The position numbers and the translations under genes are program-made. From an uncultured Actinomycetes bacterium (GTDB lineage Bacteria; Actinomycetota; Actinomycetes; Nanopelagicales; Nanopelagicaceae), in NCBI GenBank assembly GCA_937888825.1, contig CALBFE010000106.1:9551-73550 (forward strand): a DNA stretch of 64,000 nt, given 5' to 3'. Positions 12,110 through 63,409 of the stretch are shown in pieces. The notes beneath the pieces are model-generated. The model saw only the letters and a list, made by a program, of their open reading frames with translations, was not told where the DNA came from and made no database searches. Numbering within the stretch: position 1 is the stretch's first letter; each line of letters opens with the position of its first letter.

Positions 12110-12420
12110 TGCGCAAGGTCTATGCGATTGCAATAGGTGCTGGTCTGGGTGTGGGCTCGGTATTTTTGCATTCAACCTTAGTTCCATTTGGTTTGATTTT
12201 TGTTTTACTTGCAACTGTGGTCGGTATTTGGAGTATTGGTCGTTTGTGGGGCGGACGAACTCTAAAAATATTGGCTGCAGTTGCATGGACATTTGTAGTG
12301 TTGCGCGCAGGTTTCCCAGGTATAAACGAGGAGTATTTGATTGAAGGTAGTGCTGTTGGAATTTCACTGATCAATCTGGGATTTTTAGCATTAGTACTTG
12401 CAATATTGCTTCCTGCTTAA
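12109..12420 (+). CDS. Small membrane protein (DUF6113-like) coupled to mshB
   Basis: 103 aa, four hydrophobic segments, TAATG overlap; usual mshB neighbour. Confidence 0.6.
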   Translation: MRKVYAIAIGAGLGVGSVFLHSTLVPFGLIFVLLATVVGIWSIGRLWGGRTLKILAAVAWTFVVLRAGFPGINEEYLIEGSAVGISLINLGFLALVLAILLPA

Positions 12421-37039: not shown

Positions 37040-37157
37040 AACCACCAATTTAGCGCTAATTTGATTCAAACTATTGCCATTTGCAGTGCTGATGCCCTAG
37101 TTTGCAGTCTCTTGCGGAATTATTTGCAGGTTTTTACAGTGTGTGTGGGGGCGCTCA

Positions 37158-38171
37158 ATGGCTGGAATTAAGGAAGTTGCAGAGGAAGCCGGAGTCTCCA
37201 CGGCAACTGTTTCACGAGCCCTTCGCGGCCTTCACCATGTAAATGACTCCACTCGATTAAAGATTATTGCAGCTGCCGAGAAATTAAACTATCCGCTCAC
37301 ACCTATCAAGGGTAATACCGCCTTTGGACGAACAAATAGCGTTGGAGTTGTCGCACCTTATATTTCACGCTGGTATTTCTCACAAGTAATTAGCGGAGCC
37401 GAGCAAGCATTACGCGAAGCAGGTCTAGATCTTCTTCTCTATAACTTCAGTCAAATGAAAGGCCGAGAAAGGTTATTTCAACACCAGTTACTCAAGGGCC
37501 GTGTTGACGCACTCATTGTTATCAGCTTGCCACCAACAGCTGAGGAATTTGATTCCATGCTTAGCCTTGGTATTCCAATTGCCTTGATTGGTATGGAGCA
37601 TGAAAAATGTGCTTCTGTAAAAATTGATGATATTGCGGGTTCTCGTTCTGCAACTCAACATTTAGTCAATCAAGGACATAAGAAAATCGGATTAATGTCA
37701 GGGCGTCCTGATGATCCATTTAATTTCAGCGTTCCACAAGATCGCCGCAAAGGTTTCATGCAAGTGTTAGCAGAAAACGGCCTGGAGTGGTTACCTCAGC
37801 GTGAAGTCCATGGTGATTTCACAATGCATACTGCTGCCCGCGCAATGGATGATTTATTAGCTCGCCCTAACCGACCAACAGCCATTTTTTGTGAATCTGA
37901 TGAGATGGCCATGGGGGCTATGCAAGCACTACGTCGACATGGATTAAAAGCTCCAGATGATATTTCTATTGTTGGTTTTGATGGCCATGAGATGGCAGAG
38001 TTTTCAGAGCTCACAACTATTGAACAACCCGTGCAACTCATGGGTGAAATGGCGGCCTGGTCGATTATGGAGAGATTGCGCAAACCAAATATTGATCCAC
38101 CTTCACTCGTACTGCCAACAACATTGGTCGTGCGAAATTCAACGCGTCGAATTAGCCCGAAAGAGGCTTAG
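37158..38171 (+). CDS. LacI family regulator
   Basis: IKEVAEEAGVSTATVSRAL HTH; PDDISIVGFD. Confidence 0.93.
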   Translation: MAGIKEVAEEAGVSTATVSRALRGLHHVNDSTRLKIIAAAEKLNYPLTPIKGNTAFGRTNSVGVVAPYISRWYFSQVISGAEQALREAGLDLLLYNFSQMKGRERLFQHQLLKGRVDALIVISLPPTAEEFDSMLSLGIPIALIGMEHEKCASVKIDDIAGSRSATQHLVNQGHKKIGLMSGRPDDPFNFSVPQDRRKGFMQVLAENGLEWLPQREVHGDFTMHTAARAMDDLLARPNRPTAIFCESDEMAMGAMQALRRHGLKAPDDISIVGFDGHEMAEFSELTTIEQPVQLMGEMAAWSIMERLRKPNIDPPSLVLPTTLVVRNSTRRISPKEA

Positions 38172-38184
38172 TTATAGCCTCTTT
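38160..38184. terminator. Probable intrinsic terminator after lacI-type gene
   Basis: Perfect 9-bp stem AAAGAGGCT / AGCCTCTTT with a 7-nt loop spanning the stop codon. Confidence 0.55.
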
Positions 38185-38218
38185 CACTAAATGAGTGGGG
38201 CAGGGTAACCTTGCCGTC

Positions 38219-39388
38219 ATGTCTGATAACAAAGTTATTGCGCCTGCGCTTAGTGAACTTCTTACCCGTAGCTCTGAGAAATGGCGAGGATTTGCAGCAG
38301 ATGTTCTGCCTTTGCCAGTTATGGAGATGGACTTTCCAATAGCTCAGCCAATTCGTGATGTTTTACTTGAGATGGTGACGAGCTCAGATCTTGGGTATTT
38401 AGGCCCAGTTCCTGAGTTAGCTGACGGCTTTGCAGAATTTTGCGCCAAGCGTTGGGGCTGGGAAATAGATAAGTCACAGGTAAGAATTGCAGCAGATGTT
38501 GGAGTTGGCTGCGTTGAGGTTTTGCGCGTCTTTACAGCGCCAGGTGATCGCATACTCATTAACTCACCGGTGTATCAAAACTTCTATAATTGGATAGATG
38601 AAGTTAAGTTAGAAAAAGTGGATATTCCATTTGTGAACTCCGGTTCCCAAAACGATGATGTTAATCCTTGGAGCTTAGATCTAGATGAAGTTGAAAAAGC
38701 ATATGCCTCCGGTATAAAAGTTCATCTTCTGTGTTCTCCCCACAATCCGTTGGGTCGAATTTATTCACGTGCAGAGCTGACTCGAATTGCAGATATGGCC
38801 AAAAAATATGGTGTCATCGTAATCAGCGATGAGATTCATTCACCTTTAGTCTTTAAATCACATGAGTTTGTCCCATTCTTGGCCATAAGCGAAACTGCAC
38901 GAGAAGTGGGTGTTGCTCTAAATTCTGCCTCTAAAGGCTGGAATATTGCCGGACTAAAATCAGCTTTAATTATTTCGCAAAATGATGCCATTGATGAAGT
39001 TCTAAAATTAATGCCGCCAGCTGTTAAATTTCGATCTTCAATTCTTGGTGCATTTGCATCTGCAGCAGCTTTCAAAGATGGTGGAGTCTGGCTGGATTCA
39101 GTCATTAATACATTGGAAGAGAATTCTTTGATGGTGCGCGATCTGCTCAGCGCCAAACTTCCTTCAGTTAAGACACATTTGCCACAGTCCAGCTACGTTG
39201 CTTGGCTGGATTTAAGCGCACTTAATCTAGGTGAGAACCCTGCTCAAACTCTATTAGAGCGCGGCAAGGTTGCCTTTAACGCTGGACATTTATACGGGGC
39301 ACAAAGCTCACAGTTCGTGCGTTTAAATTATGCGACTAGCCCAACAATTCTGACGGAGGCAATAGATCGAATTGTGAAATCTTTATAG
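38219..39388 (+). CDS. MalY/PatB PLP-dependent C-S lyase
   Basis: KW....DVLPLPVMEMDF, LCSPHNPLG, ISDEIH, SASKGWNIAGLK. Confidence 0.88.
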   Translation: MSDNKVIAPALSELLTRSSEKWRGFAADVLPLPVMEMDFPIAQPIRDVLLEMVTSSDLGYLGPVPELADGFAEFCAKRWGWEIDKSQVRIAADVGVGCVEVLRVFTAPGDRILINSPVYQNFYNWIDEVKLEKVDIPFVNSGSQNDDVNPWSLDLDEVEKAYASGIKVHLLCSPHNPLGRIYSRAELTRIADMAKKYGVIVISDEIHSPLVFKSHEFVPFLAISETAREVGVALNSASKGWNIAGLKSALIISQNDAIDEVLKLMPPAVKFRSSILGAFASAAAFKDGGVWLDSVINTLEENSLMVRDLLSAKLPSVKTHLPQSSYVAWLDLSALNLGENPAQTLLERGKVAFNAGHLYGAQSSQFVRLNYATSPTILTEAIDRIVKSL

Positions 39389-40902
39389 TGACAAACTATG
39401 ACGTTGCAATTATTGGTGGCGGCCATAACGGCCTTGTTGCAGCAACATATTTAGCTAAAGCCGGTAAATCGGTAGTTATTCTTGAGGCTAATGCAGAAGT
39501 AGGCGGTGCAACGACGAGTGTTCGAGCATTTCCCCAATACGATGCCATGCTCTCTCGTTACTCGTATTTGATTTCACTACTGCCAGATCAGATTGCGAGT
39601 GATCTAGACTTAAATTTTGAACGCATTTCACGTACTGTTTCTAGTTACACGCCTTACTCTCGAAATGGCAAGGATTCAGGGCTGTATGTGGCGCGTGAAT
39701 GGGATAAAGAAACTGAAAATTCTTTCAATGAATTAGATCCAACTGGTGCAGAGTGGGCAGCCTGGCAGGATTTTTATAATGAAATTGCAGAGTTCGCCGT
39801 CAAAATTGCTCCCTCTATGCTTCACCCGTTAAAGAACCGTAGTGAGTTAAAAGCAGAGATCAATATGCCAGAAGTGTGGGATTACTTGATGGAGCGCCCA
39901 ATCGGTGAAGTAATTGAGGCGCGCTTTAAAGATGATTTAGTTCGTGGAGTAATTCTAACCGATGCTCTGATTGGAACATTTTCTTCAGCACATGAAATGC
40001 AAGCAAACATCTGCTTCTTGTATCACTTAATTGGAAATGGTACCGGTGAGTGGAAAGTTCCAAGGGGTGGAATGGGAGCCTTGGTTAAAGAGTTAGTACG
40101 TGTTGCAACTGCGGCTGGTGTGGAGATTAAAGTTAATTCAAGAGTTTCATCAGTTAGTACAACTGCTGATAATGCAACTCTTACACTTGCAGATGGCACA
40201 TCAATTAACTCTAGTTATATTTTAAGTAATGCTGCTCCACAAGTTTTAGCTCGACTTCGAGGAAAAACTCCACCTGCCAGTCTTGAAGGCTCGCAGATGA
40301 AGATTAATATTTTACTGAAGTCCTTACCTCAATTAAAATCTGGAATAGATCCACGATTGGCTTTTGCCGGAACATTTCACGCCTATGAATCTTTTGCCGA
40401 GTGTGAATCAACTTATCTGGATGCAAAAGCTGGAAATATGCCAGGAATGCTTCCTATTGAAATGTACTGTCACACGCTCACTGATCCATCCATTCTTAGT
40501 ACCGAGCTGCAAGAAGCGGGATATCAAACTCTTACACTCTTTGGTTTACACACCCCAGCTGCCCTCTTTGATGCTGACAATGAAGGCGCAAAAGCTGCAG
40601 CACTCAAAGCTGCACTAGCTTCACTTAACCAATATTTAGTTGAGCCAATTGAAAATGTCATTGCTGCTATTGAAGTTAAGTCTCCTTTAGATATTGAGGG
40701 CGATGTCGGTCTGCCTCGCGGCAATATCTTCCATAAGGATTTGAGTTTTCCTTTCCGTGAAGATAACCAGGAAATGCGCTGGGGCGTGGAAACCGATGAT
40801 CCCCGCATCTTTATCTGCGGAGCAGGAGCAATTCGTGGTGGAGGCGTAAGCGGTATTCCCGGCCACAACGCTGCAATGGCAGTGCTGGAAGCATCAGCAT
40901 AG
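39388..40902 (+). CDS. FAD-dependent oxidoreductase, phytoene-dehydrogenase superfamily
   Basis: IGGGHNGLVAA, PRGGMG, GNIFH, GGGVSGIPGHNAA. Confidence 0.85.
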   Translation: MTNYDVAIIGGGHNGLVAATYLAKAGKSVVILEANAEVGGATTSVRAFPQYDAMLSRYSYLISLLPDQIASDLDLNFERISRTVSSYTPYSRNGKDSGLYVAREWDKETENSFNELDPTGAEWAAWQDFYNEIAEFAVKIAPSMLHPLKNRSELKAEINMPEVWDYLMERPIGEVIEARFKDDLVRGVILTDALIGTFSSAHEMQANICFLYHLIGNGTGEWKVPRGGMGALVKELVRVATAAGVEIKVNSRVSSVSTTADNATLTLADGTSINSSYILSNAAPQVLARLRGKTPPASLEGSQMKINILLKSLPQLKSGIDPRLAFAGTFHAYESFAECESTYLDAKAGNMPGMLPIEMYCHTLTDPSILSTELQEAGYQTLTLFGLHTPAALFDADNEGAKAAALKAALASLNQYLVEPIENVIAAIEVKSPLDIEGDVGLPRGNIFHKDLSFPFREDNQEMRWGVETDDPRIFICGAGAIRGGGVSGIPGHNAAMAVLEASA

Positions 40903-40911
40903 GATGAGCAG

Positions 40912-41967
40912 ATGAGTAAAAAAATTGAAACCAGCGCGATCACTGCAGGACGTCCACCAGTCATGCCCGATGCACCACTTAATCCTTCAATTGATTTAAC
41001 TTCAACTTTTCATTCAGGTGGTCCTATTGGTTATGGGCGTTACGGAAACCAAACATGGACATCTTTAGAAGAAGCAATAAGTGAGTTAGAGGGGGGGCAA
41101 ACTCTTGCATTTTCTTCTGGCATGGCAGCGATAAGTGCGGTCTTTTCAATTCTTCCCATGGGTGCGCCAATTATTGCCTCTAACCAGGGCTATAGCGGTG
41201 TTATGAGTTTGCTAAATTCTTTTCATGCAAGTGGTCGTTTAGAAGTTAGATTTGTAGATGTTGTAAACACGCAAGAAGTAATTGATGCAATGAATGGTGC
41301 TGCACTCATCTGGCTTGAGTCACCTACTAATCCATGTCTAGACGTTGCTGATCTTGAAAAGTTAATCGCTGCAGCTAAGAAATTGGGAATTGGCGTGGCA
41401 GTGGATAATACTTTTGCAACTCCACTTGTGCAAAATCCTTTAGCAATGGGTGCTGACATAGTGATGCACTCTGTCACCAAGTTCCTATCTGGTCATAGCG
41501 ATGTTTTGATGGGTTCGCTTTCTACAAATGATCCAGCTCTCTATAAGCGCTTGCACGATTCACGCAGTTTTAATGGATCTATCCCAGGACCATTTGAGGC
41601 TTGGCTAGCACTGCGTGGACTTCGCACATTCCCGCTTCGCTTTAATAAATCACAAGAAAGCGCTAAGGAGTTAGTCCAACGACTTGAGAGCCACCAGAAG
41701 ATCACTCGGGTTCGCTACCCAGGTTTTGGTGCCATTGTTTCTTTTGAAGTTGATGGAACTGCAGAACAGACCCAAAAAGTATGCGAATCATCAACGTTGA
41801 TTGCCCATGCCACATCTTTAGGTGGTGTTGAATCGCTGTGGGAGCGCAGGCGACGCTGGCCAATTGAAAGTCCAACAGTTCCAGAGCAGCTCATTCGTTT
41901 ATCGGTGGGCTGTGAGCACGTTGATGATATTTGGGACGACATATCTAGGGCCCTCAACTCTATCTAG
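40912..41967 (+). CDS. Cys/Met-metabolism PLP enzyme (cystathionine gamma-synthase/lyase family)
   Basis: [49 protein letters not shown]. Confidence 0.88.
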
Positions 41968-51712: not shown

Positions 51713-52103
51713 GCCAAGAGTACTTTTTGTTTGTGTGCATAACGCTGGTCGTTCTCAAATGGCAGCTGGATTTATGAAGGCATTAGGGCAAGATCGCATA
51801 GAAGTTCTCTCTGCAGGTTCTGCACCTAAGGACTCAATTAATCCCATAGCCATTCAAGCCATGGCAGAACTTGGGATAGACATTGCACATAATGTTCCAA
51901 AGATTCTCACACCAGAGGCAGTTCAAGCATCTGATGCAGTAATAACAATGGGCTGTGGGGATGCTTGCCCGTTCTATCCAGGCAAGCGTTATGAGGATTG
52001 GGTGTTAGAAGATCCTGCGGGGCAGGGGATTGAGTCAGTGCGAGTGATTAGAGATGAAATCAAGAAGCGCGTGGAAACTTTGCTTGCTGAACTCCTTGCT
52101 TAA
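51702..52103 (+). CDS. arsC: LMW-PTP-type arsenate reductase
   Basis: VLFVCVHNAGRSQMA (CX5R), MGCGDACP, EDPAG. Confidence 0.9.
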   Translation: MTNKPRVLFVCVHNAGRSQMAAGFMKALGQDRIEVLSAGSAPKDSINPIAIQAMAELGIDIAHNVPKILTPEAVQASDAVITMGCGDACPFYPGKRYEDWVLEDPAGQGIESVRVIRDEIKKRVETLLAELLA

Positions 52104-52837
52104 GAAAGTAAGAATTTAGCTCCAGCTATTAGTAGGACAAAGCCTAAAGCCCGTTTAACCCCAACGGATGAGAATCTTTTGATGCCAAAACGAGTTCCAA
52201 TGAATGCTCCGAGTAATACGGCAACTAAGAAGATGGGTAGCTCGCTAGGGAGTGAAGAAGTAGATTGAAAGTTGCCAAGTAATCCAGCGGTTGAGTTAAC
52301 AAAGATAAAAGCAGCAACAGTTCCGCTAGCTGCTTTCACACTCACCCAACCTAGCCAAATGATGAGGGGGGAGAGGAATATGCCGCCTCCTGTGCCAGTA
52401 ATGCCAGAGAGCAAACCAACGCATGCGCCCATAAAGATCGCTAGAGGCTTGTTTACTTCTCTATGAGCCTTATCCGTTTGCAACGCTTGCACCAAAAAGC
52501 GCACACCAGATAACAACAACAGCACGCCAATAACTGGCCTATAAACATCACTTGGCAGATTAATTCGCCCACCTAAGTATGCTGCAGGCACAGAGCCCAG
52601 ACTTAGGTTTAAAAAGAGTGATTTATGAAAGAGATTGCTTTTGATATAGCGAAGGCAGGTATAGGAAGAGACAAAGATGTTAAGAGTCAGCGCAGTTGGC
52701 TTTATAACAACTGGGGGCAGATCAAAAAGCGTCATTACGGCTATATATGCCGAAGCACCTGCGTGCCCCACCGATGTATAGAGAATTGCTCCCAGAAATA
52801 AGCACCCAGCAATGAGGAGCGTCTGTGCTTCAAACAC
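52100..52837 (-). CDS. TSUP (TauE/SafE) family permease
   Basis: VGHAGAS and SGITGTGGGIFLSP repeats, about 8 TM. Confidence 0.85.
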   Translation of the reverse strand: MFEAQTLLIAGCLFLGAILYTSVGHAGASAYIAVMTLFDLPPVVIKPTALTLNIFVSSYTCLRYIKSNLFHKSLFLNLSLGSVPAAYLGGRINLPSDVYRPVIGVLLLLSGVRFLVQALQTDKAHREVNKPLAIFMGACVGLLSGITGTGGGIFLSPLIIWLGWVSVKAASGTVAAFIFVNSTAGLLGNFQSTSSLPSELPIFLVAVLLGAFIGTRFGIKRFSSVGVKRALGFVLLIAGAKFLLS

Positions 52838-53763
52838 TACTGAACGGCTTTAACTATCTGCTCACTGAGCCATGTGCGAAGGCTGTAGGCATCATCAACC
52901 ATAAAACCATGGCCAAAGAATCCATGAATCATTCCTGGGTATTCCTTCATTGTCACAGGCACGCCTGCTTTTTCTAGCGCAGCTGCATAGTTTGCCCCAT
53001 CATCGCGCAAGACATCATGCTCGGCTAAACCGATAATTGCTGGTGCAACGTTTTTGAAAGAAGTTGCTCGCGCAGGAATGGCATATTTATTGTTCATGTG
53101 CGCCTCTGGAACATAGAGTCCCCAACACCACTGCATTCCAACACTTTCCAAACCGAAACCAGTCTCATGGGCAAGGTATGACTTGGACTGAAAGTCGGTA
53201 TCAAGACATGGATAGATAAGCATTTGGTAGGCCAACTTCACATCACCAGTATCGGCAGCTTTGAGTGCAACTGCTGCAGCTAAATTGCCTCCAGCGCTAT
53301 CTCCTCCCACGCCAATCTTTGTAGGATCAATTCCAAGGCGCGCAGCGTTCTTTGCAACCCAGAGCAGACCTGCATAACAATCATCAAAAGGTGTTGGGAA
53401 TGGATGCTCTGGTGCTTTCTGGTAGTTAATTCCAATTACTACAAAACCAGTCTCGGCTGCGATGTTAGACATCTGTGGGGCATAGCGAAGTGTCCAACTA
53501 AAGACCCAGCCTCCGCCATGGAAATAAACAAGGGCAGGAGCATTAGGTTTTACGTTTTTAGGACGAAAAATAACGGCATGCAGATCTGCGGTAGGTGAAG
53601 TGAAATAGGTATTTTCAGTGTGCACATCATTAGATTCAGGACCTGCATACTTTAGGTAATCAGCCGCATCTGCTCTGCGCTCTTCTAAAGTTGCATCAGC
53701 CGGCATTGGATTATTGGCGGCGGTGTAGTCGAGGAAAGCTCTGGTCTGTGGATGCATAGTCAT
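52837..53763 (-). CDS. HSL-family alpha/beta hydrolase (esterase)
   Basis: HGGGW, GDSAGG, HDVLRDD, HGF. Confidence 0.92.
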   Translation of the reverse strand: MTMHPQTRAFLDYTAANNPMPADATLEERRADAADYLKYAGPESNDVHTENTYFTSPTADLHAVIFRPKNVKPNAPALVYFHGGGWVFSWTLRYAPQMSNIAAETGFVVIGINYQKAPEHPFPTPFDDCYAGLLWVAKNAARLGIDPTKIGVGGDSAGGNLAAAVALKAADTGDVKLAYQMLIYPCLDTDFQSKSYLAHETGFGLESVGMQWCWGLYVPEAHMNNKYAIPARATSFKNVAPAIIGLAEHDVLRDDGANYAAALEKAGVPVTMKEYPGMIHGFFGHGFMVDDAYSLRTWLSEQIVKAVQ

Positions 53764-54206: not shown

Positions 54207-54242
54207 TTAGAGTTAAGCCAGCGGCAGTTAAGAAAATAACCA

Positions 54243-54395
54243 TTACGTGTGTAAAGGGGTTTGCGCATCACTTATTCCACCAGAGGCTGCATTCACCACA
54301 ATGATTAAACCGATTGAAGTTCCAAGGGCTACGGCCACAAGCAATGTCTGCCGCATTCGTTGTCTTAGCTCGCGAGGCAGATAAGTCAAAAACAT
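54243..54395 (-). pseudogene. 5' remnant of a MacB/FtsX-type ABC permease
   Basis: MFLTYLPRELRQRMRQTLLVAVALGTSIGLIIVVNAASGGISDAQTPLHT* with SD GGGGG; resembles the N-terminus of actinobacterial ABC permeases but stops after 50 aa. Confidence 0.65.
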
Positions 54396-54556
54396 TGAGC
54401 CCCCTTGAAATTGTAAGTAAATCATTAGGCAACTTAGGGGTATCAGCCTGAATCAGGAAGAAAATTTGCTGAGAAAGATGTGTGAATATCTCCCTACCTG
54501 GGAGCCAAATAGGCGTGATGTGATGGATTCTCCGGCGACTCTCAAGCAAATTCGGG

Positions 54557-55495
54557 GTGCTGGGGGTTGTTTTCAATTATTTTCAACCAGTGAAAGAAAG
54601 CGTCCGAATCCTTAAAAACCTTGAAGATGAGTCCATTGAAATCCTTCGAGAAACTGCCGCTACCTTCGCTAAGCCCGTGATGATGTATTCCATAGGCAAG
54701 GACTCATCGGTCCTATTGCACTTAGCTAAAAAAGCTTTTTATCCTGGCTTTATTCCTTTCCCCCTCTTGCATGTGGATACAACATGGAAGTTCAAAGAGA
54801 TGATTGCATTTCGTGATCAGGTTGTAGCCGATGCAAAAGTCAATCTCATCGTCCATACTAATCAAGATGGTGTTGCAGCTGGTATTAATCCATTCACATC
54901 AGGGATTTCTGAATACACCCGGGTAATGAAAACTGTTGCATTGCGTCAAGCTTTAGATGAACATCGTTTTGACGCAGCAATTGGTGGATCGCGACGTGAT
55001 GAAGAAAAATCACGGGCGAAAGAAAGAATCTTTAGTGTTCGAGGTGCTGGACATTCGTGGAACCCTCGAGCCCAGCGTCCTGAACTATGGCGCTCTTATA
55101 ACACCCGGCTTGCATCGCAGGAGACTATGCGCGTATTTCCACTTTCTGATTGGACAGAATCAGATATTTGGATGTACATATTGCAAGAAAATATTGAGGT
55201 TAACCCTTTGTACTTTGCTAAGCCACGCCCCATGGTTGCACGTGGGGATCAATGGATCATGGTTGATGACGAACGCTTTCCTTTGCTAGATGGTGAAACA
55301 CCACAAATGCGCACAATGCGCTTTAGAACTCTCGGTTGCTATCCATTAACAGCTGCCGTGGATTCAGAAGCACAAACAATTGAAGAGATTGTCGAAGAAG
55401 TTCTGCAGGTCAAACTTTCAGAACGTGCCACACGTCTAATCGATGGCGCTGGCGAAGACTCCATGGAGAAGAAAAAGACTGAAGGTTATTTCTAA
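54557..55495 (+). CDS. cysD: Sulfate adenylyltransferase subunit 2 (NodP-like)
   Basis: [41 protein letters not shown]; true start may be GTG 54590. Confidence 0.96.
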
Positions 55496-57318
55496 TGTCT
55501 AGATCGGTAATCAGGTTACTGACCTGCGGCAGCGTCGATGATGGTAAGAGCACACTGATAGGACGCTTATTGGTCGAGACTGACAGCGTTCCACACGACA
55601 CAATTAGCGCCGCTCGCTTCACACGTAGGAGTGGCTCAACAATTTCTTCAGGTGAAGTTGATTACAGCCTGTTAACTGATGGATTAGAAGCCGAGCGCGA
55701 GCAAGGCATTACCATCGATGTTGCCTATCGATCAATGTCACTTCGTGATGGAAAACGTTTAATAATTTCAGATGCACCAGGCCATGAGCAGTACACCAGA
55801 AATATGGTTGTTGCAGCCTCCCGGGCCGATATTGGCTTAGTACTAGTTGATGCAACTAAAGGTGTGCGCACTCAAACCCTTCGCCATTCCACTATCTGCG
55901 CAATCATGGGAGTTAAGCGAATAATTGTTGCAATTAACAAGTTAGATGCGCTGGGATATTCTCAAGAGGTATACACGCAGATTCACAATGAGCTTAGTCC
56001 ACTATTTACCAAATTAGGAATTGATGACGTTCGTTTCATTCCAATGAGTGCACTCAATGGTGACAACGTCACTACTGCAAGCTCGACGATGAGCTGGTAT
56101 TCAGGTGAGACATTGCTAGATGCTATTCAAGGATGGAATCCTGCAGCTCATGTTGGTAGTGATTCACGCATGGACATTCAATTAATTTCACGAGCCGAAG
56201 ATTTTCGTGGAGTCTCTGGAACAGTTCACGGTGCTGGATTTGCTGCAGGTGATAAAGTCACCGTCCTGCCATCTAAGCAGAAGGCTACAATTGCAAAGAT
56301 TGTTACCTACAACAATGAGAATGCAACCGCTGGCGATTTAGAGTCAGTGACATTAGTGCTAGAGCCTGATATTGATGCCACACGAGGCGATGTCATCGTA
56401 AATGATGGAAATGAATTAGAGATTTCAAACCGCTATCAGGCAAAAATCGTGTGGTTGCATGAAGAACCCCTTGTTCAAAGCCGTTCCTATCTCTTAATTT
56501 CTGGCCCTACTCAAGCTCCCGTAACGATTTCCAAGATTAAGTATGTACTTGATGTAGTTAGCGGTGAGGAAAAACCAGCTCAAAAGCTTCAGGTAAATGA
56601 GATTGGTTTGGTCGAAATCGCAACTGATCGTGCGATTGCCCTTGAGCCGTATTCCCAATCGCGACAGTACGGAAATTTTGTAATTGTCGATCGCCTTACT
56701 CAACAAACAGTTGGAGCAGGGATGGTCGAGCATTCACTGCGCAGAGGCACGAACATCACTCATCAGGCATATGAAGTGGCAAGAAGTGATCGTTCTCTAC
56801 AAAAATCACAAAAGGCACAGATTATTTGGCTCACAGGTTTATCTGGTTCTGGTAAGTCAACTATTGCTAATGAGTTAGCCAAGCAGCTCTTTGCCCAAGG
56901 TTTCCATGCCTATGTCCTAGATGGAGATAACTTGCGCTCAGGGTTAAATATGGATTTGGGTTTCACACCAGAAGATAGAGCAGAAAATGTGCGCCGAGTT
57001 TCTGAGGTCGCAAAATTGATGCTTGATTCCGGATTAATTGTGATTACAGCTCTGGTCAGTCCCTTTGAAACCGATCGCCAGAGAGCACGCAGCCTGGTTG
57101 AAGAGGGTGAGTTCATGGAAATCTTTATCGATACGCCAATAGAAATCTGTAGAGCACGCGACCCTAAGAGTCTCTACAAGAAAGCAGACAGTGGCAAAAT
57201 CCCTAACTTCACCGGCATTGGCCAAGAGTATGAAGTTCCATTGCACCCTGAGTTAGTCATTGATGGCACAAAACCATTATTGGACTCAGTAAAGCTAATC
57301 ATGGCGCGCATTCAATGA
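55495..57318 (+). CDS. cysNC: Fused ATP sulfurylase GTPase subunit / APS kinase (NodQ-like)
   Basis: GSVDDGKSTLIGRLL, DAPGHEQYTRNM, NKLD; C-terminal WLTGLSGSGKST, LDGDNLR, NFTGI...YEVP. Confidence 0.96.
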   Translation: MSRSVIRLLTCGSVDDGKSTLIGRLLVETDSVPHDTISAARFTRRSGSTISSGEVDYSLLTDGLEAEREQGITIDVAYRSMSLRDGKRLIISDAPGHEQYTRNMVVAASRADIGLVLVDATKGVRTQTLRHSTICAIMGVKRIIVAINKLDALGYSQEVYTQIHNELSPLFTKLGIDDVRFIPMSALNGDNVTTASSTMSWYSGETLLDAIQGWNPAAHVGSDSRMDIQLISRAEDFRGVSGTVHGAGFAAGDKVTVLPSKQKATIAKIVTYNNENATAGDLESVTLVLEPDIDATRGDVIVNDGNELEISNRYQAKIVWLHEEPLVQSRSYLLISGPTQAPVTISKIKYVLDVVSGEEKPAQKLQVNEIGLVEIATDRAIALEPYSQSRQYGNFVIVDRLTQQTVGAGMVEHSLRRGTNITHQAYEVARSDRSLQKSQKAQIIWLTGLSGSGKSTIANELAKQLFAQGFHAYVLDGDNLRSGLNMDLGFTPEDRAENVRRVSEVAKLMLDSGLIVITALVSPFETDRQRARSLVEEGEFMEIFIDTPIEICRARDPKSLYKKADSGKIPNFTGIGQEYEVPLHPELVIDGTKPLLDSVKLIMARIQ

Positions 57319-58067
57319 ACTGGATTCTTTTTGCTTTAGCTGGATCAGTTGCTCAATTTGTTGATGGCACTTTAGGGATGGGCTTTGGCCTATTAAGTTC
57401 TACCCTTTTACTGACTTTGGGGGCATCGGCTGCCCTATCCTCGACAGCGGTGCACATGGCAGAGATTTGTACGACTTTGGCATCAGGCGCATCGCATTGG
57501 CACGCAGAAAATATTGATAAAAACGTATTGCGTCGTCTGGCAATTCCTGGCGGAGTTGGTGCATTTTTGGGGGCAACTTTTTTATCTTTTATTGATCTCA
57601 CCAACGGTCGAATCTTTGTATCAACGTTGCTTTTATTCCTTGGATTCTTACTGCTCTATCGAAACTTGTTTTCCAATCAGCAGACAAACGCTATTGAAAT
57701 TAAGAACCCACGCTTTCTTACCTATCTAGGCTTTACAGGTGGTTTTATAGATGCAGCAGGTGGCGGCGGATGGGGCCCGTTAGTAACTCCCACTTTGCTT
57801 TCTACAACCAGTACAGAACCTAGAAAAGTCATTGGAACAGTAAGTGCGTCCGAATTCATTGTGGCCGTTGCAGCAAGTACGGGCTTTCTTATCAACTTCA
57901 ATCGCGTTGACATTGATTGGAGCGTGGTGGGTGGGTTGGCTTTGGGTGGAACGATTATGGCGCCTATTGCTGCTCGTATCGTAAGAAATCTGCCCCGTAA
58001 ACAACTGGGTCTTTTTGTTGCACTAGCTATTATTGCAATAAATGGTTACCGAATCATTATTGGTTAA
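57315..58067 (+). CDS. TSUP (TauE/SafE) permease, candidate sulfate transporter
   Basis: QFVDGTLGMGFG, DAAGGGGWGP; ATGA overlap with cysNC. Confidence 0.85.
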   Translation: MNWILFALAGSVAQFVDGTLGMGFGLLSSTLLLTLGASAALSSTAVHMAEICTTLASGASHWHAENIDKNVLRRLAIPGGVGAFLGATFLSFIDLTNGRIFVSTLLLFLGFLLLYRNLFSNQQTNAIEIKNPRFLTYLGFTGGFIDAAGGGGWGPLVTPTLLSTTSTEPRKVIGTVSASEFIVAVAASTGFLINFNRVDIDWSVVGGLALGGTIMAPIAARIVRNLPRKQLGLFVALAIIAINGYRIIIG

Positions 58068-58072
58068 GTTGA

Positions 58073-59005
58073 CTAGTAGTACTGCTCGATCTCTATCCCT
58101 TGGGAGTAGAGTTCTTGAAGAATCTGAGAATATCTTCTTTCAAAGGCATTAGGATTTTTCACAACTTTAGCCCAATCTCCTTGAGACATTTTTTCAGCAA
58201 GTAGAACTTCGTCATAGTATTTACGCAAGGTATCGTTGTCATCAAGATTTAAAAAAGTGAGAACCTTTCGATATGTCGCATCACGATCGTGAACTATGAA
58301 ATCCTCTAATCGCACGGTGATGTGGTTATCTTCTGGAATTTTCTTTAACGCTAAGAAAGACTTTTCGATTCTGCCCTTCCACCATTCCAGCGCTTCTTCG
58401 GGCGTGCTTGGGCCCCATTTTTCTTTACTAACCGACAATGCGACATCACGACCATCGCGAACCATATTTATAAATAATGAGTTTGGCATGAAGCGGGAGA
58501 TGCGATTGGCATTTTGAATATTTAAAGGAGTTGAATCGGCAAAATATTTAACGCTTTGATCCTTAAGTTGAGCTCTAGATAGTTCAAAAAAGAGGTCTTG
58601 GGATGCCCCCAGTAGATCCTCTTTTGATTTGAAATCAAAGCGTTCAAGAGCACGATTGAGATCCTCGCGCTCTATTCCCTGTACTAAACCTCGAGGTTTG
58701 CCCGTTTTACCCTCCTGGCTCCACCATCTGGTAGAAATTCTTTCTCTGAAAACCTGATGCTTGCTCTTTCCAAGCAGCAGAGAAGTACGTAAAAAAACTC
58801 TTTTTCTCACCTCGCGCCGGCTGGTTTCAAAAGCTAGGGGCCTGCCAAAGTTGAGATCCAACAGACCGGCACGGTCAGTGAGATATTTAATTTCACGGGG
58901 CATGCTGGTGTGAAATTCGGGGTGGCGGGTCAGGCAATTGACGATAGCCGTAGTGCCGCTACGACCTGTACCACCTGAAAAAACAGGTGTGAAATCAATA
59001 CGCAT
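58073..59005 (-). CDS. Sulfotransferase (Sulfotransfer_3-like), paralog A
   Basis: 5'-PSB GTGRSGTT; 3'-PB MVRDGRDVALS. Confidence 0.88.
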   Translation of the reverse strand: MRIDFTPVFSGGTGRSGTTAIVNCLTRHPEFHTSMPREIKYLTDRAGLLDLNFGRPLAFETSRREVRKRVFLRTSLLLGKSKHQVFRERISTRWWSQEGKTGKPRGLVQGIEREDLNRALERFDFKSKEDLLGASQDLFFELSRAQLKDQSVKYFADSTPLNIQNANRISRFMPNSLFINMVRDGRDVALSVSKEKWGPSTPEEALEWWKGRIEKSFLALKKIPEDNHITVRLEDFIVHDRDATYRKVLTFLNLDDNDTLRKYYDEVLLAEKMSQGDWAKVVKNPNAFERRYSQILQELYSQGIEIEQYY

Positions 59006-59055
59006 CTAGATATCTTAAGGTCGTAAATCCTCTTATGTGGCGATAATCTGTCTGT

Positions 59056-60024
59056 GTGGCATATTCACCGAAAACTCACATTCCAGTTCCGATATTTATA
59101 GGCGGCACAGGTAGAAGTGGCACCACGATTCTTGGAGATATGCTCAATGAGCATTCATTGATTAGAACTAGCAATCCTACCGAGATCAAATTTCTGGCTA
59201 ATAGAGGTGGCTTACTTGATGTAATTTTTGGATCACAGAGCTCTAATATATTAAAGCGTCAACAAATATCTGTGTTGTACTTTCGGACTCGGAGAGAAAG
59301 AAAACGCAAAGATGCTCTAGCTAGGACTATTCGAGTTCAAGAGTTTAGAGAAAAGCTTTGGCAAAAGTGGTGGGAGATTGACGCAAAACCACCGCATGGA
59401 CCAGGCCTACATGTTGGAATAATGAAAGAAGTACTGACAGATATTGTCAATAAATTTGAAAAGTCAATGAATAAAAGTCCAGCCCGTGCTGGAAGACGAT
59501 TTATGGACAGATTTATATCCTCCCAGTTTGATTCAACTAGCAAAAAGAAATATTGGGTCGAGACCACACCCATGAATATTTCGTATGCCCAACACTTAAC
59601 CACTCTTTATCCTCAAGCACGTTTTATCGTAATGCGGCGCGATCCTCGAGATGTTATTGCCTCTCTTATAACTAAAGACTGGGGGCCATCAACGCCGCTG
59701 GAGGGTATTGAATGGATTGAAAAAAGATTACGTTCAGATGCCCATGGTCAAAGTTTTATCCCCAAAAGCCAACTGCTCGTTATTAATCTGGAAGATTTAG
59801 TTACGAACAATCCTGAGCAGACCTATAACAAGATATTAAAGTTTCTTGCAATTGAAGACGAGCCTGCAGTGCGAACTTTTCACCAAGAAAAAATGAATGG
59901 CGATCTTGCATCCTCTGGTCGCTGGAAAAGTCAAATAGATTCACCGGAGTTTGTTTCCGCAACCGCACAAATGTTGCAACGCTTAAAGGACGAGGCAATC
60001 GAATCCGGCTTAATCTTGATGTAG
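59056..60024 (+). CDS. Sulfotransferase (Sulfotransfer_3-like), paralog B
   Basis: 5'-PSB GTGRSGTT; WVETTP; 3'-PB MRRDPRDVIAS. Confidence 0.88.
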   Translation: MAYSPKTHIPVPIFIGGTGRSGTTILGDMLNEHSLIRTSNPTEIKFLANRGGLLDVIFGSQSSNILKRQQISVLYFRTRRERKRKDALARTIRVQEFREKLWQKWWEIDAKPPHGPGLHVGIMKEVLTDIVNKFEKSMNKSPARAGRRFMDRFISSQFDSTSKKKYWVETTPMNISYAQHLTTLYPQARFIVMRRDPRDVIASLITKDWGPSTPLEGIEWIEKRLRSDAHGQSFIPKSQLLVINLEDLVTNNPEQTYNKILKFLAIEDEPAVRTFHQEKMNGDLASSGRWKSQIDSPEFVSATAQMLQRLKDEAIESGLILM

Positions 60025-60104
60025 CCCCAATCTCACAAGGTATTCCCAGGATTATTACAACTATTTGGCGCCTGACACACTGTTTTACCCTATAGATTAA
60101 AAAT

Positions 60105-60983
60105 ATGATATCTGCTGAAAATCTTCCCAAGCATCAAAGAGTTCGTGTTGGTTTAGTTGGATTCGGTAAAACCGGACGAGCCGTGGCTTCGGTATTGCTG
60201 CACGACAAAACAATTGATTTAGTGTGGGTGGTGAGGAAAAGTAACACTCTTGATATGCGCTCAGTACCAGAGTTTCTTGGAATCGAATCAGATGAAGATG
60301 GCACCATTCACTGCACTGATGCTGTGGATTTTGAATCCCTACAAGCAAGCTCGCCAGTAGATGCAATAATTGACTTCAGTTCCGAATCGGGCATGGATTA
60401 CTACGGTGAAAGTGCCGCCGAGCTTGGCATAACAATAGTCTCAGCCATTTCAAATCTTTCAAACGCAAGAATTAATTCACTCAAGAATTACTCTAAAACT
60501 ACCCGAGTCTTATGGTCTCCAAATATAACTTTGGGAATTAATTTTCTGATAGTTGCCGCTAAAACTCTACAAGAACTAGCGCCTCAGGCTGATGTGTCAA
60601 TTCTCGAGGAGCACTTCAAATTAAAACCAGAGGTTTCTGGAACTGCGCTAAAGATTTCTGCTGCGCTAAATTTAGATCCAGAGGACATTCGAACAATTCG
60701 AGCTGGTGGAATTATTGGAGTTCATGAAGTTCTTTTTGGATTCCCCTTCCAAACGGTCAGGTTAAAGCACGAGTCAATTTCCCGAGAATCATTTGGAAAT
60801 GGGGCTAAATTCGGCCTCATGGAGATCCAAAAGCGTGACATTGGTTTCTACAATATGGAGGATTTAGTGGGAAAATTCTTTGTTGATGCGAATAGTAAAT
60901 ACGCCACAACTCCTAACCCAAAGATAGAAAACAAAGGCTTGCTGGGTAAGGTCATTAGATTTCTCTACCACCGCTTTGGATAG
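60105..60983 (+). CDS. DapB-like NAD(P)-dependent reductase, divergent
   Basis: GLVGFGKTG, IIDFS, WSPNITLGIN, EEHFKLKPEVSGTA, IRAGGIIGVHEV, R.SFG.GA. Confidence 0.75.
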   Translation: MISAENLPKHQRVRVGLVGFGKTGRAVASVLLHDKTIDLVWVVRKSNTLDMRSVPEFLGIESDEDGTIHCTDAVDFESLQASSPVDAIIDFSSESGMDYYGESAAELGITIVSAISNLSNARINSLKNYSKTTRVLWSPNITLGINFLIVAAKTLQELAPQADVSILEEHFKLKPEVSGTALKISAALNLDPEDIRTIRAGGIIGVHEVLFGFPFQTVRLKHESISRESFGNGAKFGLMEIQKRDIGFYNMEDLVGKFFVDANSKYATTPNPKIENKGLLGKVIRFLYHRFG

Positions 60984-61039
60984 AGCTATTAGTCATTTAA
61001 TGATTGATTTACAGATAAATCCCGGGTTCACTTACGTAA

Positions 61040-61078
61040 GTGGGTAGTGAAGGACTTGAACCCCAACACGGGTTATGT
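61040..61078 (-). other. Degenerate tRNA 3' half (possible att-site remnant)
   Basis: Minus strand: CATAA CCCGT GTT GGGG TTCAAGT CCTTC ACTACCC A C, i.e. anticodon-loop-like, T-arm and acceptor 3' strand; no intact 5' half. Confidence 0.4.
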
Positions 61079-61546
61079 ACTCTCATGGTCCACATATTGA
61101 TGTAACCGAGCTTGAACTATCTCTCATATTAGGGAAGTGCTCTGACATCTTCCACATTTTGAACTGATATTGGACAGTTAGGGCTCTTACTTTCCATCCT
61201 CAAATGCTTCGGTCAATGTCATACGTTGGGGTATTGAGTTGACTGGGAATGAGGACTCCTCCCACATCTCAGCTCCGACCAAAGAAGCCGTAGAGTCAAA
61301 ATTGTAGTGAGCAAGATTGTCATTCCTTTGACCCATTACACCGATATATCCGTTTTCAAATAGGGGAGAGTTGATCCCTATCTGGGGTGAGAAAAGCCAT
61401 GAAGGCAAGGAGTAGCCAATCTGTCTAAAAAAACTACAATAAGGAAGTGACAACCAGACTCAAAGTAGTCATCTTGCATCTAGCATCCCAGGCTGTAATC
61501 AACTGTTGCTAACTGATAGAGATACACGTGCGCGTGCATTGGCTCA

Positions 61547-63409
61547 GTGATGAACGCTCAAACGCCACGCCCAGTAGATCTTCCCCACACCGACAACTGG
61601 AATGAAGCCGACATTATTGCTGGTCCATCCACGCTAGCCGATCGCCAGCAATGGCGCAGCAGATTAGTCGATTGGCGTAAAGATGCAGCCACAGGACTTA
61701 ATTACGACGACAACGCTTATCAATCCGCCGAACTTTTTAATAATCCATCATACAGTGTTGCTTTAATCTGGTTATGGGATGAACTTCTCTTTGATTTTTC
61801 AACTCAAGAATTTACGCCCGATAAGTTATTAGCAGATGCACAAAAGTTCGGTAGCTTTGATGGGATCATTTTGTGGCATGCATATCCAGTCATTGGGATT
61901 GATTCACGTAATCAATTTGATTTCTATAATGATGTTCCAGGTCTTGCTCAACTGATTACCAACTTTCAAAAAGCTGGCGTCAAAGTTTATTTGAACTACA
62001 ACCCGTGGGATAAATGGACTAGGCGTGAATCCACTACAGATCAGTTTGGTTTAGCACAACTAATTAAGCGATTTAATTTTGATGGCGTTTTTCTTGATAC
62101 GTTGAAATCAGCTGATCCTGATTTTATGGCACCAATTATTGATGTCAAACCTGACATCGTTTTAGGCGGCGAAGCGACAGTTCAGCAAGAGCGAGTCTGC
62201 GATCACACAATGTCGTGGGGTCAGTGGTTTGTTGATAGCGAAATTCCAGGGGTTTTGCGCGCTAAATATTTTGAACCACGACACATGATTCATCAGACAC
62301 GTCGCTGGGATCGATCCCACATTGGCGAATTACATATTGCCTGGCTCAACGGTGCGGGAATGTTGATTTGGGAAGCAGTCTTTGGCTCCTGGGTAGGTTG
62401 GAATAACTATGAAGTCTGCATGTGGCGCGAGATGGTCAGCGTTCTACGCGATCATCATCCGCTCATAGTTCATGGTCATTGGGAGCCGCTGACGCAGCTA
62501 TCTGCAGCTGCCGAGGCCGCGCATCTCTATGCCTCTTCCTTTAAACTAGATGGCTGGCAGTTAATTACCATCATTAATAAAAGTAGGAATGATTACTTAG
62601 GAGTCCTTGCTTGCGGCCTGAGTGGATTAATTCCAGCAGGGGGAGTTGGTGCAATATCGATTACTCCATCGGGTGCATCGTTGCTGCCGTTTACATATAT
62701 GAAAAGTGATCAAGGTTTCCCTACCCGTACACCTGCGCGCCAATTAGATCTAGTTGGGTCCCTTACCACTTTGACGTATTCACATCGACACCGCGAATGT
62801 GGGTTTTATGAACAACCTGGCTTCATTAATACATGGAAACCAACACGTCCTGCCTTACATGAGTTCATCACTGGGGACATAGAAGTTCCGGTCGTGAATG
62901 GAGTACTCGATACATACGAAGTTAGCAATAGAGAGTTTTATGAGTTTATGCAAGCCACTCACTATGTGCCAGAAGTATCTAATCGCTTTCTTTCTCATTG
63001 GGTTAACGGCGCACCACTTACTGATCAACTTGATAACCCCATTGTCTATGTCGATCTTGATGATGCAGTTGCCTATTCAAGATGGAAGGGCTCTGAAGTT
63101 CCCAATGAATGGAACTGGCAGTTCAATGCAGATTCGATTGTACATCGAGCAACTAGCGTGTGGAATTTAACCAATAGCATTCATAGTGATGGCCGTACGC
63201 GTTTCTTAATTCTCAAGGGCGGCAGTACGTTTAATATTCACAACGGCCAAGGTGCACAGTCACCCACTGGACTTGCCGAATCTGATTGGTATATTGATGG
63301 TGGAATACAAGATAGTTCGTGGAATGAAAAACTATTATTGATGGGTGCGGGCATGTCGCGCTCAGAAAATATCGGTTTTCGATGCTTTAGGCCACACAGG
63401 GGTAACTAA
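61547..63409 (+). CDS. Fusion of a TIM-barrel/GH-like N-terminal domain and an FGE-sulfatase (SUMF1)-fold C-terminal domain
   Basis: C-terminal YEVSNREF..F..AT.Y, PIVYV..DDAVAY.RW.G, KGGS, IGFRC; N-terminal WHAYP, YNPWD, DGVFLDT. Confidence 0.7.
   Translation: MMNAQTPRPVDLPHTDNWNEADIIAGPSTLADRQQWRSRLVDWRKDAATGLNYDDNAYQSAELFNNPSYSVALIWLWDELLFDFSTQEFTPDKLLADAQKFGSFDGIILWHAYPVIGIDSRNQFDFYNDVPGLAQLITNFQKAGVKVYLNYNPWDKWTRRESTTDQFGLAQLIKRFNFDGVFLDTLKSADPDFMAPIIDVKPDIVLGGEATVQQERVCDHTMSWGQWFVDSEIPGVLRAKYFEPRHMIHQTRRWDRSHIGELHIAWLNGAGMLIWEAVFGSWVGWNNYEVCMWREMVSVLRDHHPLIVHGHWEPLTQLSAAAEAAHLYASSFKLDGWQLITIINKSRNDYLGVLACGLSGLIPAGGVGAISITPSGASLLPFTYMKSDQGFPTRTPARQLDLVGSLTTLTYSHRHRECGFYEQPGFINTWKPTRPALHEFITGDIEVPVVNGVLDTYEVSNREFYEFMQATHYVPEVSNRFLSHWVNGAPLTDQLDNPIVYVDLDDAVAYSRWKGSEVPNEWNWQFNADSIVHRATSVWNLTNSIHSDGRTRFLILKGGSTFNIHNGQGAQSPTGLAESDWYIDGGIQDSSWNEKLLLMGAGMSRSENIGFRCFRPHRGN

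Follow-up and report, generated by a model that had tools for sequence, protein, structure and literature searches.

A recurrent gene module in freshwater Nanopelagicales likely couples sulfate activation to sulfation rather than to assimilation

We propose that a six-gene module in the genome of an uncultured member of the Nanopelagicaceae (Actinomycetota; assembly GCA_937888825.1, contig CALBFE010000106.1) is likely to be a self-contained, laterally mobile sulfation unit, and not a fragment of a sulfate assimilation pathway. The module lies at positions 54557 to 60983 of the 64,000-nucleotide stretch of this contig that was analysed, hereafter the window. It is predicted from sequence to encode the synthesis of 3'-phosphoadenosine 5'-phosphosulfate (PAPS) together with a TSUP-family permease, two PAPS-dependent sulfotransferases (ST1 and ST2) and a DapB-like NAD(P)H oxidoreductase. 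By this means, bacteria that are abundant in lakes probably produce a sulfated compound that has not been described. A preliminary description of the DNA had called the locus a dedicated sulfation cassette and had named a surface glycan or lipid among the candidate acceptors. The gene unit and the physiology of the lineage agree with the first part of that proposal. The gene context around the module lends no support to a surface glycan or lipid as the acceptor, as the flanks hold unrelated housekeeping genes. No paper on the module was found in the literature searchable here, in line with the earlier statement that no such pathway had been described for this lineage.

Every open reading frame (ORF) of at least 110 amino acids in the window was annotated by direct Pfam searches and from the precomputed annotations of identical contigs. 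All six ORFs of the preliminary description are present, and profile searches agree on their identities. The first, cysD (54557..55495, + strand), encodes the small subunit of sulfate adenylyltransferase (TIGR02039, 474.6 bits against a cut-off of 396.6; NF009214, 466.6 against 413; PF01507), and the PP-loop SIGKDS is readable in its translation. Its orthologues are 69-94% identical in approximately 40 loci; because they are 301-303 amino acids long, translation of cysD may in fact begin some 11 codons further 3'. The second gene, cysNC (55495..57318, +), encodes the GTPase subunit of ATP sulfurylase fused to adenosine 5'-phosphosulfate (APS) kinase (NF004035, 747.5 bits; cut-off 715). The GTP_EFTU domain spans residues 5-212 and the APS_kinase domain (PF01583, 216.9 bits) residues 441-590, covering profile positions 2-152 of 152. 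The GTPase motifs GSVDDGKST, DAPGH and NKLD and the kinase motifs GLSGSGKST (P-loop) and LDGDN are all present, and CysNC is 607 amino acids long at every locus. With family membership this strong and motifs intact, CysD and CysNC are predicted to form APS and then PAPS. The TSUP/TauE permease gene (57315..58067, +; PF01925, 139.5 bits versus 32.6, residues 7-243 of 250) follows cysNC directly in most loci, and its orthologues are 69-92% identical. ATP sulfurylase and permease genes are closely packed, with a TAATG overlap at the cysD/cysNC junction and an ATGA overlap at the cysNC/TauE junction, so that the translational coupling suggested earlier is plausible. The remaining three genes encode ST1 (58073..59005, -; Sulfotransfer_3, PF13469, 70.4 bits), an accessory paralogue; ST2 (59056..60024, +; PF13469, 85.2 bits), the sulfotransferase most often kept; and the DapB-like oxidoreductase (60105..60983, +; DapB_N 48.1 bits, DapB_C 61.3 bits). 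The permease and ST1 genes are convergent with 5 nt between them, and the ST1 and ST2 genes diverge across 50 bp.

Both sulfotransferases retain the features expected of PAPS-dependent enzymes, as had been claimed: the 5'-phosphosulfate-binding loop GGTGRSGTT and the 3'-phosphate-binding motif RD(G/P)RD...S are intact in each. In ST2 the loop occupies residues 16-24 and the second motif reads RDPRD...S203; both are invariant across ST2 orthologues and conserved in ST1 and in a third sulfotransferase (ST3) encoded nearby. The conserved motifs of ST1 are GGTGRSGTT, P-x-E-I-K and RDGRD...S. Since the P-loops begin at residues 16 (ST2) and 11 (ST1), neither protein has room for a signal peptide. 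ST2 has approximately 1007 homologues, and an alignment of 13 sequences with 52-73% identity has 98 invariant columns, among them a family-specific block, KWWxIDAxxPHGxGL. An AlphaFold model of ST2 (pLDDT 79.5, pTM 0.82) matched sulfotransferases in 22 of 22 Foldseek hits at E <=0.001. The nearest folds were the human and tick tyrosylprotein sulfotransferases TPST1/2 (E 3.6e-7, TM 0.56), followed by Stf9, the sulfotransferase domains of CurM and OLS, and Stf1. A profile search of PDB sequences with ST2 also ranked TPST1 first (E 2e-11); identity to the TPSTs is about 17%, and the invariant Glu43 of ST2 lies two residues away from the aligned TPST glutamate. A weak NCBIfam match links ST2 to the Nod-factor sulfotransferase NoeE. 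In contigs identical to the window that continue past its 3' end (L001:15440-18062), an MscS channel gene is followed by the third Sulfotransfer_3 gene (314 aa, -), a BTAD regulator (244 aa) and a GYD protein. The island of this genome therefore holds three sulfotransferases, which are paralogues at 31-34% identity with identical motifs kept.

The arrangement recurs. Approximately 150 loci, fetched in sets seeded on ST2 or on the DapB-like protein, were mapped with the window proteins, and the genes directly 3' of cysNC were tallied. A sulfotransferase gene, a DapB-like gene or both stood immediately downstream in 57 of the 57 loci that carried cysNC, in seven architectures. TauE, ST1 on the opposite strand and ST2 followed cysNC in 15 loci (plus 2 at a contig end), and the same series extended by the DapB-like gene in 9 (plus 1 at a contig end), which include the window and seven near-identical contigs. 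TauE and ST2 without ST1 accounted for 6 loci (plus 4 at a contig end), and TauE and the DapB-like gene without any sulfotransferase for another 6. Where TauE was missing, a reversed ST1 and ST2 occurred with the DapB-like gene (5 loci) or without it (4 loci). The seventh architecture, TauE, reversed ST1 and the DapB-like gene, was found in 4 loci, plus 1 with a further sulfotransferase gene after it at a contig end. ST1 is thus present in most, not all, variants. In most versions that lack TauE, a 75-aa DUF2061 membrane protein is encoded between ST1 and ST2 (L089:9764-9991; also L015, L016, L022, L023 and L090). Altogether, cysD-cysNC-(TauE) with at least one of ST1, ST2 and the DapB-like gene occurs in approximately 60 Nanopelagicales loci, isolate genomes among them, and PAPS synthesis genes are coupled to one or more sulfotransferases in approximately 45 of the loci seeded on sulfotransferases. 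Chance is far from sufficient to explain the arrangement, given that dozens of independent contigs show an identical gene order. The earlier idea of a dedicated unit of PAPS synthesis and sulfotransfer is borne out by its conservation as a block in many species of Nanopelagicales and in varied surroundings.

Module proteins share 59-94% amino acid identity across species. The module was found at no fewer than four unrelated sites in the chromosome: it follows argG-FKBP(-MIP-arsC) at one, riboflavin and fpg genes at another (here with fasciclin genes on either side), a two-component system at a third, and an S-methyltransferase gene and a tRNA at a fourth. In the last of these (L100:2688-2761) the tRNA lies immediately 5' of cysD, in an abundant cysD-cysNC-TauE-ST1-DapB-like variant, which is consistent with insertion of an island at a tRNA. 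The flanks are unrelated ordinary genes, for example those for alpha-amylase, lipoyl synthase, alcohol dehydrogenases, response regulators, an M48 peptidase with LemA, and dCTP deaminase. In the isolate 'P. perrara MRE-203', an insertion between conserved flanks consists of alpha-amylase, a small transporter, cysD, cysNC, TauE, ST1 and ST2. Relatives of ST2 in species-representative genomes are almost all from Nanopelagicales (Candidatus Planktophila, Nanopelagicus and 'acI'), closed isolate genomes included. Closed genomes with the module are those of isolates MRE-203 (OZ254154), MRE-226 (OZ254131), RoE-11 (OZ254157) and OrE-3 (OZ254162). Some records of such relatives bear implausible species names and are the same type of low-GC freshwater contig; four loci from public MAG records (L011, L030, L041 and L088) with acI-like sequence and synteny under the titles 'Streptomyces griseus' or 'Bifidobacterium breve' are evidently mislabelled. 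Viral contigs carry only relatives at 26-29% identity, and we therefore do not regard the sulfotransferase family as phage-borne. Metatranscriptome contigs from several runs match cysD, cysNC, TauE, ST1, ST2 and the DapB-like gene at >=99% identity, which is consistent with transcription of the module in situ.

Gene content and lineage physiology both argue that the PAPS is destined for sulfation. The preliminary description had noted the lack of cysH and sulfite reductase beside the module, and this is true for the whole 64 kb: neither an APS/PAPS reductase (a member of that family other than CysD) nor a sulfite reductase occurs among the window ORFs, and neither cysH nor sir is found at any of the approximately 60 module loci. 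Mycobacterium tuberculosis makes sulfite from APS via an APS reductase. Assimilation in Corynebacterium glutamicum also uses an APS reductase route, with no APS kinase. Given that actinobacterial assimilation of this type proceeds through APS reductase without an APS kinase, the kinase fused to CysN points to sulfotransfer, and PAPS in this phylum would be a sulfo-donor rather than an assimilation intermediate. According to papers on the lineage, assimilatory sulfate reduction is incomplete, reduced sulfur is needed and growth is stimulated by methionine or cysteine, so that the earlier remark on the sulfur requirement of acI bacteria is well founded. In a 2025 cultivation paper, whose isolates include 'P. 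perrara MRE-203', no isolate has all of the assimilatory sulfate reduction genes; Hamilton et al. 2017 do not mention sulfate. The genome of MRE-203 (L013) carries the module. The permease probably imports sulfate, by analogy with CysZ of C. glutamicum, with product export as the alternative. Genetic evidence identifies CysZ as a high-affinity sulfate permease of the TSUP family, which upholds the precedent cited earlier from the Corynebacterium cys operon; substrates and direction of transport are not predictable from sequence in the TSUP family.

The predicted structure of the DapB-like protein is a two-domain DapB of the long proteobacterial type (TM approximately 0.65), and the top 47 Foldseek matches are all DapB, with E values down to 1.7e-13. 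Its TIGR00036 score, 100.5 bits, falls under the equivalog cut-off of 122; NCBI names relatives 'DapB C-terminal domain-containing protein', and other members of the cluster are called 'hypothetical protein'. His170 and Lys174 are invariant and the SGTA loop is kept, with Phe171 in place of the second histidine: the motif E-E-H-F-K-L-K-P-E-V-S-G-T-A corresponds to H-H-x-x-K-x-D-A-P-S-G-T-A in DapB, and the loop is one residue shorter. Thirteen diverse members are 67-75% identical with 124 invariant columns. Compared with DapB, the protein therefore shares the two-domain fold, the GxGxxG dinucleotide loop, the catalytic His and Lys and the SGTA substrate loop, and differs in its score below the cut-off, in the change of the second His to Phe and in the shortened DAPSGTA loop; it resembles the long proteobacterial type more than the 245-aa actinobacterial DapB. 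Its context is sulfate activation and transport, not lysine biosynthesis. We found it with cysDNC-TauE, with sulfotransferases, with a SulP-family transporter, or alone, and never with dap genes. No canonical second dapB was found in 1.78 Mb of loci, a set that is centred on the module and hence uninformative on this point.

The DapB-like gene is also commoner than ST2 (3138 versus 1007 matches) and is present in four of the cysNC architectures. It follows ST2 in one lineage and lies between two sulfotransferase genes in another locus (L067). A very abundant variant has it after ST1 in the place of ST2; this variant is indexed in 183 blocks of the collection. In other Planktophila (L095:6477-9792; also L096 and L097) its neighbours are genes for a CBS-domain protein on one side and an anion transporter of the SulP family (PF00916) on the other, and neither cysDNC nor a sulfotransferase gene lies within 7 kb. 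The preliminary description had counted it as a member of the cassette; it is a true recurrent partner, tied more closely to cysDNC-TauE than was assumed, even where no sulfotransferase is present. The variant without a sulfotransferase (L124-131) was considered as the same lineage as Nanopelagicus loci that have ST2 without cysDNC (L026-29); this was rejected, as the two share no DNA and differ in GC content.

In the mechanism that we favour, the co-translated TSUP permease would bring sulfate into the cell, where CysD and the GTPase domain of CysNC would convert it to APS and the fused APS kinase would phosphorylate APS to PAPS; the two activation steps follow from the family membership and motifs described above. 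Cytoplasmic ST2 and ST1 would then use PAPS to sulfate a hydroxyl or an amine on an acceptor not encoded by the module. The DapB-like NAD(P)H reductase, we infer, makes or processes that acceptor. The by-product, 3'-phosphoadenosine 5'-phosphate, would presumably be recycled by a CysQ-type phosphatase encoded elsewhere, none having been seen.

Several observations weigh against a self-contained sulfation unit. The absence of cysH and sir covers the 64 kb and flanks, not the whole genome. Acceptor biosynthesis genes are absent from the module flanks, where the genes are unrelated housekeeping genes, and no acceptor was identified. Co-occurrence frequencies are biased because the loci were seeded on ST2 or the DapB-like protein, although the existence of the architectures is unaffected. 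Some variants have the 75-aa DUF2061 protein instead of TauE, and the direction of transport by TauE is not set by its sequence. The RNA evidence consists of assembled contigs that are neither strand-resolved nor quantitative and could reflect DNA carry-over. Finally, in the cysD-cysNC-TauE-DapB-like variant the DapB-like gene directly follows TauE with no adjacent sulfotransferase gene. A simple model of PAPS synthesis followed by sulfotransfer does not explain this variant; another consumer of PAPS or APS is therefore possible, or the sulfotransferases are encoded elsewhere.

A further reading takes cysD-cysNC-TSUP and the DapB-like gene as the invariant core, with interchangeable sulfotransferases. 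The product would then be an undescribed organosulfur metabolite made from a cyclic imino- or hydroxy-dicarboxylate resembling an intermediate of the diaminopimelate pathway, and the sulfate ester would either be exported as the end product or serve as a transient leaving group, displaced reductively by the DapB-like protein in a logic like that of CurM. We consider this version improbable. Still less credible is a role of the module in sulfur assimilation, with the reductive genes located elsewhere or with the DapB-like protein reducing activated sulfate by a non-canonical route. Such a role would suit the presence of cysDN and a TSUP permease, which are the uptake and activation genes of the assimilatory cluster of C. 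glutamicum, as well as the variant without any sulfotransferase and the SulP-family transporter next to the DapB-like gene in other genomes; our inspection for reductive genes covered the window and the module loci. It conflicts with the lack of cysH and sir throughout the 64 kb and the module loci, and with papers in which no Nanopelagicales isolate has a complete pathway and the tested strains require methionine or cysteine. The fused APS kinase would be superfluous in assimilation of the actinobacterial APS reductase type, and sulfotransferases are linked in most variants. To our knowledge the DapB fold has no flavin, iron-sulfur or siroheme cofactor with which to reduce sulfur. We give scarcely any credence to the last of these alternatives, in which the module is what decay has left of an ancestral cys operon, has its neighbours by chance and no longer serves a function. 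Streamlined lineages do keep partial pathways, and the acceptor is not known. Decay is nonetheless hard to reconcile with ORFs that are all intact and conserved in length, with a CysNC of constant size, with catalytic motifs that are invariant, with amino acid identities of 59-94% across species, or with relocation of the module as a block to several contexts and the detection of transcripts.

If the module is a sulfation unit, its acceptor may be a soluble low-molecular-weight metabolite, converted to an anionic sulfate ester that is kept or exported. This is our first choice, held tentatively, because the module is linked to a soluble reductase and an anion permease and to no genes for glycans, lipids, peptides or exporters, and because both sulfotransferases are soluble enzymes of the cytoplasm. 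The main alternatives are envelope glycoconjugates and tyrosine in peptides or proteins, and the neighbours of sulfotransferase paralogues, together with the TPST-like fold, keep both classes in play, if indirectly. An envelope glycoconjugate, such as a sulfated glycolipid, a cell wall glycan or a glycosylated lipophilic molecule built by glycosyltransferases encoded elsewhere, seems to us rather unlikely. Sulfotransferases of the same family, paralogous and orthologous, adjoin a 464-aa GT-B glycosyltransferase with weak MurG/MGT-like matches (L026:8428-10921; also L027-29, L072, L079, L082 and L083). These pairs represent three arrangements and lineages (L026-29; L072/L079; L082/L083), both divergent and convergent, and include the Nanopelagicus ST2 orthologue. 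The NoeE match, the place of Stf1 and Stf9 among the fold neighbours, and NlpC/P60 and M23 wall hydrolase genes near some modules point in the same direction. However, across approximately 60 loci the cysDNC module is never accompanied by a glycosyltransferase, lipid or polysaccharide-export gene, the glycosyltransferase-linked sulfotransferases are just 33-51% identical to those of the window, the wall hydrolase neighbours are inconsistent across loci, and the sulfotransferases are soluble and cytoplasmic.

We judge it unlikely that the enzymes sulfate tyrosine (or Ser/Thr) in a peptide or protein, in the manner of Xanthomonas RaxST with its PAPS supply from RaxPQ, even though the TPSTs are the closest solved relatives in both the profile and the structure searches. 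Two paralogues with peptidase neighbours fit such a role. One lies 26 nt 3' of methionine aminopeptidase within rplO-secY-adk-map-[ST]-rpsM-rpsK-rpsD-rpoA in approximately nine loci (L057:9977-10885; also L055, L056, L058, L070, L071, L073, L075 and L076), and the other has a PepP-type M24 aminopeptidase gene directly on its 5' side and two crcB (fluoride channel) genes on its 3' side in five (L062:1245-4545; L061, L064, L065 and L068). These paralogues are just 33-37% identical to ST1 and ST2, the TPSTs themselves are distant in sequence, PF13469 includes non-protein sulfotransferases, and the CurM/OLS and Stf enzymes are nearly as close. Neither a conserved precursor-peptide ORF, nor a peptidase-containing ABC exporter, nor a secretion gene accompanies the module; no conserved small ORF for a peptide substrate was found beside it, and minimal modules leave no space for one.

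Nanopelagicales of the acI group are often the most numerous bacteria in lakes and are textbook cases of genome streamlining and of dependence on reduced sulfur. The synthesis of PAPS costs two ATP and one GTP per sulfate. That a costly module is conserved, mobile and apparently transcribed in cells reported not to assimilate sulfate implies a sulfated product under selection. Candidate products include a surface modification, a signalling or defensive metabolite, and a modified protein. Once identified, the product would count as a further biological source of organosulfates in the cycling of sulfur and carbon in fresh water, and it could explain differences between strains in niche or in their interactions with phages or grazers. 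If the improbable version with a DapB-like core were true, certain freshwater bacteria, among the most abundant, would supply a specific dissolved organosulfur compound, a source so far unrecognised, and would themselves rely on others for reduced sulfur. The DapB-like partner and the paralogue in the secY-adk-map cluster suggest broader use of PAPS across the order than has been recognised. Because isolates that carry the module exist, for example MRE-203, the question is directly testable.

Other features of the window touch on regulation and on sulfur metabolism. GC content is 0.415-0.424 over positions 58000-62000, which hold ST1, ST2, the DapB-like gene and the next spacer, and approximately 0.45 in cysD-cysNC and the flanks. 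Promoter and terminator consensus scans of 53.7-61.7 kb gave fewer sites than shuffled controls and are therefore uninformative on operon structure. Rfam searches of the whole window at the gathering threshold found no riboswitch or other RNA, and at E <=1 the sole match in the 350-nt gap 5' of cysD and the flanks of the DapB-like gene in L095 and L100 was the L100 tRNA. That gap (54207-54556) contains no convincing gene, has no Rfam match and is not conserved at other module loci; gene callers give a 35-aa ORF on the + strand, and the - strand holds a 60-aa ORF (54243-54425) with one hydrophobic helix. Further 5' of the module lies a second TauE/TSUP gene (52100-52837, -), which shares base 52837 with a gene for an esterase of the hormone-sensitive lipase type (pair 52100-53763; LipP1 283 bits and chloramphenicol hydrolase 236 bits, both under cut-off). 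On the 3' side, a 620-aa protein (61547-63409, +) has a C-terminal domain that matches formylglycine-generating enzymes and an N-terminal 450 aa that match no family. This protein with its FGE-sulfatase domain was considered as a member of the system and rejected, as it is found in just this genome type and lacks the catalytic Cys pair (KGGSTFNIHNG). Genes at 10125-13775 encode a MoeZ-like ThiF-rhodanese fusion, a PIG-L deacetylase (MshB-like) and a class-I CysS/MshC-like ligase, and suggest mycothiol and sulfur-carrier chemistry matching the CysO-type cysteine route reported for acI. A LacI-type regulator gene at 37143-41967 is followed by genes for an aminotransferase, a 504-aa FAD amine-oxidase-like protein and a pyridoxal phosphate enzyme of Cys/Met metabolism; this may be a locus for uptake or conversion of reduced-sulfur amino acids.

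Dedicated PAPS supply for a sulfotransferase has precedents, and in predicted function the module resembles nodPQ-nodH, mycobacterial cysDNC with stf genes, and raxPQ-raxST. What distinguishes it is a compact mobile block with a TSUP permease, a recurrent DapB-like gene and no linked acceptor genes, in a lineage reported not to assimilate sulfate. In Sinorhizobium, nodP and nodQ form a CysD/CysNC-type PAPS pair that works with nodH in Nod-factor sulfation, not cysteine synthesis. The shared feature is a PAPS synthesis pair encoded with a PAPS-dependent sulfotransferase for a specific product. The differences are that the rhizobial host also has housekeeping assimilation, that the lipo-chitooligosaccharide acceptor and its nod genes are known and linked, that NodH belongs to another sulfotransferase family, and that the rhizobial system has neither a TSUP permease nor a DapB-like partner. 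M. tuberculosis, in which cysD-cysNC and stf0-stf3 serve the synthesis of sulfolipid-1 and the sulfated menaquinone S881, likewise fuses APS kinase to CysN; its pathway branches at APS, where APS reductase acts, and PAPS is used for sulfotransfer only. Stf1 and Stf9 are also fold neighbours of ST2. Mycobacteria assimilate sulfate too (cysH, sirA) and their stf genes are scattered, in contrast to the single mobile block with cysDNC and a permease found here. In Xanthomonas oryzae, raxP/raxQ and raxST-raxA-raxB-raxX yield the tyrosine-sulfated peptide RaxX, again with a CysD/CysNC-like PAPS supply for a TPST-like cytoplasmic sulfotransferase. RaxST is linked to a precursor peptide gene and a peptidase-containing ABC exporter, neither of which stands beside our module. 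CurM and OLS (4gbm, 4gox) belong to the same structural sub-group of PAPS-dependent sulfotransferases and set a precedent for a sulfate ester as a transient activated intermediate handled by a partner enzyme. They are domains inside polyketide synthases acting on beta-hydroxyacyl chains bound to acyl carrier protein, whereas the enzymes here are free-standing, with no polyketide synthase and a DapB-like partner. The fpr2-cysIXHDNYZ cluster of C. glutamicum, finally, also links cysD and cysN to a TSUP permease, the high-affinity sulfate importer CysZ, but it has cysH (APS reductase), cysI (sulfite reductase) and cofactor genes without an APS kinase; the module of the Nanopelagicales is the reverse.

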